DNA of 59,926 nucleotides from Escherichia coli. GTDB taxonomy: Bacteria > Pseudomonadota > Gammaproteobacteria > Enterobacterales > Enterobacteriaceae. The position numbers were made by a program, and so were the translations under genes. How positions within the stretch are numbered: the stretch's first letter is position 1; each line of letters starts with the position of its first letter. Location of the stretch: NCBI RefSeq assembly GCF_003334765.1, contig NZ_QOWT01000024.1, one strand, 5' to 3'. Positions 11,667-59,926 of the stretch are shown here, in pieces. The notes below the pieces were generated by a model, which had not been told where the DNA came from, did no database searches, and worked only from the letters and a program-made list of their open reading frames with translations.

Positions 11667-13031
11667 TCAAATTACCGCCCATACGCACCAGGTAATTAAG
11701 AATCCGGTAAAACCGAGAATGGTCGTTAACACTGTCCAGGTTTTCAGACCGTCTGCTACCGATAACCCCAGATATTTGGTCACAATCCAGAACCCTGAGT
11801 CATTAATATGTGACGCACCAAGCCCACCAAAGCAGGCTGCCAGCGTCACCAATACGCACTGAATCGGATTCAATCCCATCACCGCTTCTGAGAGTAACCC
11901 GCCGGTTGTCAGTATTGCTACGGTTGCTGACCCCTGCGATGCACGCAGCGCCAGTGAAATAATAAATGCGGCTGGTAACAGAGGCAGGTCAATCATTTGT
12001 AGCATGTTGGCAAGGGCTTTGCCGACGCCCGATTCCACCAGCACTTTGCCAAATACCCCTCCAGCACCAGTAACCAAAATCACTACCGCCGCAGTAGGAA
12101 GCGCTGAGCCCATAATGTCGCTGGTGTGTTGTAAGCTCCAGCCGCGACGTAAAGCCAATAACCAGAATGCCAGCACCAGCGCAATCATTAGAGCTACCAT
12201 TGGTGAGCCGATCAGCTGTAGCGTACCAAGCAGGGGATGCGAAGGCGGCATCAGTGTTGCGGAAACCGTACCCGCCATGATAATCGCGATAGGAATAACA
12301 ATTAGCGAGGTGACCAGCGCGACGCCCGGTGGATTTATTTTATCGCTTAATTTTGTCGCGCCTTCCTCACTGGCCGGAGCCAGTTGCATCTGTTCCAGTA
12401 CTTCTACTGACATCGCATATTGGCGCTTATTGATTATTTTCGCTGCAAAGTAGCCAACAACCCCTACGGGAATAGAAATCGCAATACCGATGATGGTTAG
12501 CCAGCCGATGTCTGCGTGGAGTAACCCCGCTGCGGCGACAGGGCCTGGATGCGGCGGTACCGCCACGTGAACAGTGAGCATGATCCCAGCGACAGGCAGG
12601 CCAAATTTGAGTGGCGATATTTTGGCAACCTTGGCAAAACCGTAAATGATTGGCGCAAGAATAATAAAGCCGACATCAAAGAAGACGGGAATACCGAGGA
12701 AGAACGCTGCCAGAGTCAGCGCAGCGATAGTTCGTTTGTCACCTAACTTGCGACTGAAATAATTAGCCAGTGACTCTGCACCACCAGAGTGTTCGATCAT
12801 ACGCCCCAGCATAGCGCCCAGACCAATAATAATAGTGACGGAACCAAGCACACCGCCCATCCCGGCGATCATCACTTTACCCACTTCGCCCGCCGGTATA
12901 CCCGCCGCAAGTGCGACTAACAGGCTGACGAGGAGCAGAGCAACGAATGGTTGTACCTTTGCCTTGATGACCAGCAGCAACAGCATGATTACGCCAGTTA
13001 ACGCAATGCATAACAATGTAATTGTGGACAT
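11667..13031 (-). CDS. ygbN: GntP-family acid-sugar permease
   Basis: 454 aa polytopic membrane ORF typical of gluconate:H+ symporter family. Confidence 0.85.
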   Translation of the reverse strand: MSTITLLCIALTGVIMLLLLVIKAKVQPFVALLLVSLLVALAAGIPAGEVGKVMIAGMGGVLGSVTIIIGLGAMLGRMIEHSGGAESLANYFSRKLGDKRTIAALTLAAFFLGIPVFFDVGFIILAPIIYGFAKVAKISPLKFGLPVAGIMLTVHVAVPPHPGPVAAAGLLHADIGWLTIIGIAISIPVGVVGYFAAKIINKRQYAMSVEVLEQMQLAPASEEGATKLSDKINPPGVALVTSLIVIPIAIIMAGTVSATLMPPSHPLLGTLQLIGSPMVALMIALVLAFWLLALRRGWSLQHTSDIMGSALPTAAVVILVTGAGGVFGKVLVESGVGKALANMLQMIDLPLLPAAFIISLALRASQGSATVAILTTGGLLSEAVMGLNPIQCVLVTLAACFGGLGASHINDSGFWIVTKYLGLSVADGLKTWTVLTTILGFTGFLITWCVWAVI

Positions 13032-59172: not shown

Positions 59173-59487
59173 TCTTTCCGCGTCTCATCTTTATCGGTGA
59201 GACGCACCCTCAAAATTTCTCCTTCACTCTATAGTCTTTTCGCTTTACTCCCGTTCATTCAACTTAAGTCTCCATTTTTTTGCATTACTACTATCTGTCA
59301 GACCTCCATTCTTCTGTTGATAAAACACTCTTTTTGACGTTTTTACAGACTAATTGAACGTGAAGTGTGCAAACGATAAAAGTGTAGGAAAAATTGTTTG
59401 ACTTATAAGTCTCAGAAAGTAATATGTGCGCCACGCAGCGACGATGAGCGATAAACAAGTTCTTCGAAGCACTCGTAAGAGGCGTGT

Positions 59488-59580
59488 GGTGAGGTGGCCG
59501 AGAGGCTGAAGGCGCTCCCCTGCTAAGGGAGTATGCGGTCAAAAGCTGCATCCGGGGTTCGAATCCCCGCCTCACCGCCA
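59488..59580 (+). tRNA. serV: tRNA-Ser (anticodon GCU), long variable arm
   Basis: 93 nt; acceptor stem GGTGAGG...CCTCACC plus CCA, anticodon loop CCTGCTAAGG, T-loop GGTTCGAATCC. Confidence 0.93.
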
Positions 59581-59583
59581 TTT

Positions 59584-59660
59584 GCATCCGTAGCTCAGCT
59601 GGATAGAGTACTCGGCTACGAACCGAGCGGTCGGAGGTTCGAATCCTCCCGGATGCACCA
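59584..59660 (+). tRNA. argV: tRNA-Arg (anticodon ACG)
   Basis: 77 nt; GCATCCG acceptor stem, anticodon loop GGCTACGAACC, T-loop GGTTCGAATCC, 3' CCA; 3 nt after serV. Confidence 0.93.
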
Positions 59661-59858
59661 TATTCTACGTACTTTCAGCGATGAAGGTATGGAAGAGGTG
59701 GCGGTAATAACCGCAGGCACCAGGGAGGATAACGTTGCTTTAGCAACGGCCCGAAGGGCGAGCCGCAAGGCGAGTAATCCTCCCGGATGCACCATCTCTT
59801 ACTTGATACGGCTTTAGTAGCGGTATCAAAAAATCTGCAGTAAAGTAAGTTTCCCGAT

Positions 59859-59926
59859 GCATCCGTAGCTCAGCTGGATAGAGTACTCGGCTACGAACCG
59901 AGCGGTCGGAGGTTCGAATCCTCCCG
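59859..59926 (+). tRNA. argY: tRNA-Arg (ACG), second tandem copy, truncated by the window end
   Basis: Identical to the first 68 nt of the copy at 59584-59660; starts exactly 275 bp after it. Confidence 0.85.

Follow-up and report, generated by a model that had tools for sequence, protein, structure and literature searches.

A tRNA-Arg 3′ end copy in the Escherichia coli serV-argVYZQ operon lies within an unannotated spacer unit that is very probably of the RtT type

The rttR gene and the 178-bp repeats of the Escherichia coli tyrT operon reportedly provided the first description of RtT. To our knowledge, the only role proposed in print for rtT RNA is a modulating effect on the stringent response. 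Among other pieces of tRNA precursors, 3′ETS-leuZ and the spacers of metZWV are said to base-pair with small RNAs through Hfq. Gene segments running from the T-loop to the 3′ end of a tRNA are also reportedly used by integrases as att sites. On release as discrete RNAs, the literature concerns the RtTs of tyrT and of the Pasteurellaceae, and related RtTs have been seen to accumulate in this form (PMC4986893). Here, we analyzed the end of a 59,926-nt stretch of E. coli DNA (contig NZ_QOWT01000024.1; hereafter, the window), in which the spacer between two tRNA-Arg genes carries a copy of the tRNA 3′ end. The feature was recognizable and mostly ordinary: it is an unannotated short member of the known RtT family and not a phage-integration scar.

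Positions 59300-59926 were 100% identical to K-12 MG1655, and the last 1 kb of the window corresponded to the csrA-serV-argV region of E. coli; the window terminates inside the csrA-serV-argVYZQ tRNA operon. On the plus strand, the first gene of the operon, serV, encodes tRNA-Ser (GCU) at 59488-59580, as determined by ARAGORN, the Rfam tRNA model (56.8 bits), and the RefSeq annotation of the identical K-12 locus. It is followed by argV, encoding tRNA-Arg (ACG), at 59584-59660 (ARAGORN, Rfam, and K-12 annotation). The second tRNA-Arg gene, argY, occupies 59859-59926 on the same strand and is cut by the window end, leaving its 5′ part (Rfam tRNA model, 50.8 bits, 3′-truncated; K-12 annotation). 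Within the 5.6 kb around the operon in K-12, the neighboring genes are alaS, csrA, yqaB, yqaA, and gshA. On the minus strand, ARAGORN called a tRNA-Arg (tcg) at 59604-59675, and sub-threshold Rfam matches to Plastid-ycf2 and Plastid-psbl-rps4 were obtained at 59584-59658 and 59523-59577. All of these calls are antisense images of argV and serV and were therefore rejected as artifacts.

The spacer between the two tRNA-Arg genes spans 198 nt (59661-59858), with the next tRNA-Arg starting at 59859, as an earlier note on this DNA had described. The 19-mer AATCCTCCCGGATGCACCA was found exactly twice in the window, once as the final 19 nt of argV (59642-59660), which is the source of the sequence, and once in the spacer at 59776-59794; the identity extends to 20 nt once the following T is counted. 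Two matches were obtained in 0 of 100 shuffles, in agreement with the view of the earlier note that this is a true tRNA-derived copy and no chance match. The spacer could be divided into a 134-nt unit (59661-59794, plus strand), in which the tRNA 3′ end copy comes last, and a 64-nt short spacer (59795-59858, plus strand). The latter is the ordinary leader of the next tRNA; in the spacer without a unit, the same sequence is located directly after the genuine argY 3′ end. Because the unit keeps a genuine tRNA 3′ strand and ACCA at its end, the 19-mer is the unit's own 3′ end and not a stray fragment.

With a C/G ratio of 0.76 and a GC content of 0.55, the unit is rich in G; it is also highly structured, and its predicted fold had a minimum free energy (MFE) of -60.3 kcal/mol (z = -5.4). 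All of the following parts lie on the plus strand. The 5′ part (59661-59716) contains two hairpins in the MFE fold, at 59668-59691 and 59701-59714, and its sequence was not conserved between genera in a comparison of the Arg-type units of Enterobacter, Pantoea, and Brenneria. The closing helix P1 follows, with the 5′ strand GCACC-A-GGGAGGAT at 59717-59730, which was delimited from the fold and from a comparison of this strand across units. In the predicted RNA, this strand (GCACC-A-GGGAGGAU) pairs with AUCCUCCC-GG-A-UGC (59777-59790) in a 14-position helix that encloses three hairpins: H2 (CGTTGC-TTTA-GCAACG, 59733-59748) and H3 (GCCC-GAA-GGGC, 59749-59759), both supported by the fold and the alignment, and H4 (GCC-GCAA-GGC, 59762-59771), a covarying stem flanked by CGAG on either side. 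The 3′ strand of P1 belongs to the tRNA-Arg 3′ end copy (59776-59794), of which the last four bases, ACCA (59791-59794), form an overhang that is unpaired at the 3′ end of the predicted fold. Both hairpins named in the earlier note, GGCGGT..ACCGC and CGTTGC-TTTA-GCAACG, were found within this fold. The segment GGCGAGTAATCCTCCC, which had been called degenerate T-arm-like, rather comprises the 3′ half of H4, a junction, and the 3′ strand of the closing helix, the partner of which is GGGAGGAT at 59723-59730.

The core was compared across 39 units from 5 tRNA types. H4 showed compensatory changes at four positions, and the observed covariation score was reached by 0 of 500 shuffles; this hairpin was outside the pattern used for retrieval. 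H2 and H3 were inside the pattern, and their conservation in the comparison set is therefore partly forced. The 5′ strand of P1 ended in GGAT (or GGGT) in every unit compared and matched the tail of its own tRNA type, as exemplified by Amphritea, in which GTATAGGAT is found with ATCCTATAC. The distance from this strand to H2 was 11 nt in short forms and 48-52 nt in long forms. Two of the three K-12 copies had an imperfect P1 with one mismatch each (GGGATGAT and GGAAGGAT versus ATCCTCCC). The P1 5′ strand is similar to a fusion of two tRNA strands, the acceptor 5′ strand GCATCCG and the T-stem 5′ strand GGAGG. The modeled helix looks like a mimic of the stacked acceptor and T stems of tRNA-Arg, with the H2-H3-H4 core in place of the T-loop. 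This acceptor/T-like helix and the tail were the only tRNA-like features of the unit, and neither ARAGORN nor the Rfam tRNA model found a tRNA cloverleaf on the plus strand of 59661-59858.

A coding function of the unit was considered and rejected. The lone candidate was an 8-codon ORF at 59681-59707 (ATG AAG GTA TGG AAG AGG TGG CGG TAA), which was not kept in the remaining two K-12 copies, where only 6 codons are left. Every longer ORF overlapped the tRNA genes, and no conserved ORF was found in the 115 nt between the repeats. The peptide of this ORF, MKVWKRWR, recalls the basic Tpr peptide of the tyrT repeats.

The unit was matched by the Rfam RtT model (RF00391) with 29.2 bits (E value, 0.0023), and with 35.1 bits (E value, 1.8e-5) when the spacer was searched alone. 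The internal K-12 copies scored 29.2, 35.1, and 33.5 bits and the terminal copy scored 22.8 bits, so that the E. coli arg units stayed below the gathering score of the family, which is 45 bits. Model positions 44-130 aligned well, with a near-identical core of approximately 50 nt that runs through AACGUUGC..GCAACGGCCCGAAGGGCGAG..CGAGUAAUCC and then into the tail, and the 5′ third of the model was unmatched. Without these two 5′ hairpins of the family, the E. coli arg units reach no more than 23-35 bits and have no annotation. Read from its sequence, the spacer unit is a short form in which the 5′ hairpins of the family appear to have been lost and the GGGAGGAT strand to have been joined directly to H2.

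Like the RtT units of tyrT, the arg units belong to a tRNA operon and immediately follow one of its tRNA genes. The window unit begins at the base after the argV CCA (59661), and units are placed likewise behind argZ, behind argQ, and in other genera. In both systems, the last 19 nt of the unit repeat the tRNA 3′ end including CCA, and in the window they match 19 of 19 bases of the upstream tRNA. Both also have the core AACGTTGC..GCAACGGCCCGAAGGGCGAG..CGAGTAATCC, a closing helix in which the tail pairs with a GGAT-ended strand further upstream, and tandem arrays of variable copy number, and H2, H3, H4, and P1 were all present in the MFE fold of the arg unit. At the tyrT locus, PGAP annotates an RtT sRNA behind each tRNA-Tyr, in the same module order as in the arg operon and with the tRNA-Tyr 3′ end last. 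The arg units differ from those of tyrT in that their tail derives from tRNA-Arg instead of tRNA-Tyr, that the two additional 5′ hairpins found between P1 and H2 in the RtT family are absent, and that their 5′ 56 nt are unrelated to the tyrT units. We consider it very likely that the spacer unit is of the RtT type.

The arrangement of units in the operon was determined by cutting the sequence after every ...CCTCCCGGATGCACCA. Two modules were obtained: module A, consisting of a 62-64-nt short spacer plus a tRNA (139-141 nt in total), and module B, the 133-135-nt unit with the tRNA 3′ end copy last. K-12 reads tRNA-B-A-A-B-A-B, with B in the argV-argY and argZ-argQ spacers and a third, more diverged B after argQ, before the sole terminator-like site on the plus strand. 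The junctions were interchangeable, and either B or the short spacer may follow a tRNA or a B: the bases after the B end were the same short spacer as after the genuine argY end, and the sequence 3′ of argV, argZ, and argQ was the start of B. The exact 275-bp spacing that the earlier note had ascribed to the tandem copies holds for the argV-argY pair and does not extend to all copies, which are spaced 275, 139, and 275 bp in K-12, a pattern invisible within the window. Similarly, the fragment was expected in every spacer; it recurs in the argZ-argQ spacer and in the third copy after argQ, and it is missing from the argY-argZ spacer, which has only 62 nt.

Copy number differed between strains. 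Strain EC13 reads B B A B A B A B, with two identical 134-nt units in tandem behind argV (1862-2129 of locus L003) and a unit in every later spacer. Strain 19SZHZ869Rt reads B A A A B (locus L004), and its argZ-argQ unit is missing. The unit-specific 115 nt were detected in 5157 of 5426 complete E. coli genomes, with 1-6 copies per genome, and the remaining 269 gave no megablast match to this part. In the RefSeq E. coli genomes, the 115-nt part was always chromosomal and never lay under an annotated feature. Unannotated RtT-type units are thus present in the serV-argVYZQ spacers of almost every E. coli genome and account both for the odd copies of the tRNA 3′ end and for the differences in operon length between strains. 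Such copies should not be read here as integration scars or pseudo-tRNAs. A similar arrangement was seen in the lys-val operon of E. coli SCPM-O-B-8794 (locus L175; also L160, L165, and L173), in which the last two tRNA-Lys genes are separated by an RtT-type unit that has the construction of the arg short form and a tail matching tRNA-Lys (GTGAAGGATAACGTTGC...GAGTCATCCTGCACGACCCACCA).

The bodies of the K-12 B modules were 84-90% identical, and their tails agreed at 18-19 of 19 positions, including the copy after argQ, which has a unique downstream flank. An intact tail on a drifting body argues, at the level of sequence comparison, for a constraint on the tail instead of the slow decay of a relic. 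The identity of the tails could also stem from repeated regeneration or gene conversion and not from selection.

Related units were collected with a pattern scan of one genome per species, which gave at least 120 loci, and the counts derived from it describe a sample. Among the matches listed, the core was located behind tRNA-Arg(ACG), tRNA-Arg(CCG), tRNA-Lys, tRNA-Pro, and tRNA-Tyr in Enterobacterales, Orbales, and marine Gammaproteobacteria. The Arg-type units of Yersinia and Serratia and the Lys- and Pro-type units passed the gathering score at 62-101 bits; with many Arg-, Lys-, and Pro-type units above this score, the RtT family is already broadly defined. Seventy-seven core copies among the matches listed had a same-strand tRNA no more than 1.2 kb upstream, and 66 of them carried the 3′ end of their own tRNA as the tail (at least 14 of 16 bases; Arg, 19; Lys, 18; Pro, 9; Tyr, 20). 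The tails tracked lineage-specific tRNA substitutions, as seen in the Arg tail of Yersinia nurmii, two Tyr variants, two Lys variants, and the Lys tail of Amphritea. The position of the unit was kept in the serV-arg operons of Enterobacter, Pantoea, Brenneria, Serratia, and Yersinia, and in other strains and genera a unit was present in only some of the spacers. The units of Yersinia and Serratia retained approximately 21 nt of the tRNA body (ACCGAGCGGTCGGAAGTTCGA) before the core. Viral contigs were also scanned with a loose pattern, which mostly returned GC-rich coding noise. The real units in that scan were only those of L032 (Lys-type, two copies at 12253-12432, IMG/VR) and of L051 and L067 (Tyr-type). 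RtT-type units at the very ends of predicted viral contigs are probably the host flanks of prophages located beside tRNA genes.

A role of the unit in the processing of the polycistronic precursor is plausible. The maturation of tRNAs in E. coli is well established, and the proposal made here rests on it and on the precedent of tyrT. One promoter-like site, upstream of serV, and one terminator-like site, after the third unit, were found on the plus strand, and no internal promoter or terminator was found on the plus strand of the units. On account of these two sites, the units would be co-transcribed with serV-argVYZQ from the single promoter-like site. As the end of the unit and the bases that follow it equal a real tRNA end, the enzymes of tRNA processing should treat the two alike: RNase E and then RNase T/PH would cut and trim behind the unit as they do behind each tRNA. 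The cut would release the unit as a discrete, structured, CCA-ended RNA, and the next tRNA would then reach RNase P with a normal 64-nt leader. Taken by itself, this role as a processing cap is a tentative proposal and close to an even call; the combined reading of an RtT-type unit with a processing-cap role appears fairly likely. The arg unit would thereby resemble 3′ETS-leuZ and the internal spacers of metZWV, which the processing machinery cuts out of tRNA precursors and which then persist as RNAs, as is predicted for the arg unit. Those spacers reportedly pair with small RNAs via Hfq, for which the arg unit has no known partner or pairing region. At the DNA level, units would be added and removed by slippage or unequal exchange, for which the 19-20-nt direct repeats and the repeated tRNA genes give the opportunity; with repeats 134 nt apart and repeated tRNAs, the observed gains and losses of units would follow.

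The earlier note had interpreted the 19-mer as a relic of a partial duplication or of an integration/excision event, a reading that gives way here to that of a fixed 3′ end of a conserved, structured RtT-family unit. If it were an integration scar, a small element would have entered a tRNA gene in the T-loop region, leaving the 3′ end in two copies, attL and attR, and the 115 nt would be the remnant of this element, possibly still mobilizable in trans. As at integrase att sites, the direct repeat of 19-20 nt consists of a tRNA 3′ end and begins inside the T-loop, and filled and empty forms exist, the empty site argY-62 nt-argZ adjoining filled sites with identical downstream sequence; the same core also lies behind four different tRNA types. 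However, slippage between close direct repeats accounts for gain and loss, and explains the 20-nt flanking repeat and the empty site equally well. In contrast to att sites, which flank kilobases with a recombinase, the arg insert has merely 115 nt with a conserved covarying structure common to several tRNA operons, and it occupies the same operon position in several genera. No recombinase or mobile-element remains were found between or next to the repeats, and no integrase is annotated in the 5.6 kb around the K-12 operon. Repeat expansion is the better fit for tandem units without an intervening tRNA and for units that also contain the 5′ strand of the T-stem, and we regard an integration scar as highly improbable. 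It is also very unlikely that the main role of the unit is to pause or terminate transcription and so to grade expression along the operon. Such a role has been reported for the tyrT-distal repeats, inside which Rho-dependent termination reportedly occurs. Units often form the last element before the operon terminator, as is the case behind argQ in K-12 and behind the final Lys, Pro, or Tyr tRNA of other genera, and a related element is located between the rrnB T1 and T2 terminators. Two of the three K-12 units are nevertheless upstream of further tRNA-Arg genes that must still be transcribed, which makes termination at these internal units unlikely. Moreover, a G-rich structured unit is unlike a typical Rho loading site, and the plus strand of the units contained no intrinsic-terminator-like site.

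A neutral by-product has to be weighed as well, namely a decayed tRNA-Arg copy with an insertion that is kept by the homogenization of tandem repeats and has no processing or RNA role. The slot of the unit is approximately as long as a spacer plus a tRNA (133-135 versus 139-141 nt), and the tRNA body ahead of the core in Yersinia and Serratia explains the likely origin of the unit. The number of units varies freely between strains, 269 of the 5426 genomes gave no megablast match to the unit-specific part, and P1 is imperfect in two K-12 copies. These features stand against the covariation of H4, the type-specific complementarity of P1, and the conservation of the core over Enterobacterales families and tRNA types. 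In addition, the tail of the terminal copy is intact even though its flanks offer little homology for conversion, and RtTs related to the unit are known to accumulate as RNAs of their own (PMC4986893). That the unit is no more than a neutral by-product therefore seems unlikely.

The core of the arg unit was also found behind another stable RNA gene. In K-12, the interval between the rrnB T1 and T2 terminators (530-625 of locus L197, which runs from the 5S rRNA gene to murB) contains an element of four hairpins that shares this core: AAATCCGCC-GGGA-GCGGATTT (H1), AACGTTGC-GAA-GCAACG, GCCC-GGA-GGG, and GGCGGGC-AGGAC-GCCCGCC. The rrnB T1-T2 interval is carried by many cloning vectors. Elements distal to 5S rRNA with the additional H1 and a covarying H4 were likewise present in several enterobacteria (loci L091, L083, L153, L162, L177, and L196). 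The H2-H3 core of the rrn element (AACGTTGCGAAGCAACGGCCCGGAGGGTG) is near-identical to that of the arg unit, and the element closes with 18 nt copied from the 3′ end of 5S rRNA and its trailer (AACTGCCAGGCATCAAAT), in the same module order as the tRNA-RtT units. It differs in being capped by 5S rRNA with an extra H1 and no obvious P1, whereas the arg unit is tRNA-capped and has P1. No Rfam family matched the rrn element at an E value of up to 1. The 3′ end copy is thus a constant, maintained feature across tRNA types, with a parallel form in 5S rRNA, and the idea that the 3′ ends of stable RNAs act as portable processing or protection signals thereby becomes testable.

Outside stable-RNA operons, free copies of 74-75 nt with four hairpins and without a tRNA or rRNA end were observed, often in tandem (loci L085, L092-L096, L099-L114, L125-L133, L143-L151, L164, L167-L170, L180-L188, and L195). 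The hosts listed were Pseudomonas, Stutzerimonas, Alcanivorax, Salinicola, Halomonas, Marinobacter, Stenotrophomonas, and Pectobacterium, and Alcanivorax sp. 24 had more than 25 free copies among the matches listed. At variable positions, H1 and H4 of the free copies showed all four Watson-Crick combinations, and no Rfam family matched the free copies at threshold. The arg unit shares its core with these 74-75-nt repeats, which recall dispersed hairpin repeats of the REP/BIME type; the dispersed copies have no tRNA or rRNA end, whereas the arg unit is tRNA-ended and located in a stable-RNA operon.

How the tRNA-capped, 5S-capped, and free copies of one core are connected may merit further attention. 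One could imagine a single superfamily of four-hairpin elements of approximately 55-75 nt in Gammaproteobacteria, with tRNA-capped, 5S-capped, and free forms, in which the arg unit would be a processed, CCA-ended minihelix RNA with a function of its own. Such an element would repeatedly have ended inside a duplicated 3′ segment of a host stable RNA and would borrow the 3′ end maturation and protection of the host RNA, like a natural tRNA scaffold. We regard this wider view as speculative and, as a whole, rather doubtful. The Rfam family RF02902 (Aggregatibacter sRNA 22) may be a Pasteurellaceae representative of the free element. It gave weak matches of 17-26 bits, against a gathering score of 39.8, at 59711-59805 of the window, at 709-805 of locus L102, and at 562-656 of locus L105. 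The RF02902 consensus contains the same run of hairpins, aaaacgC..Gcguuuu, CGuUGGC..GCCAaCG, and gCcCc..gGgGc.
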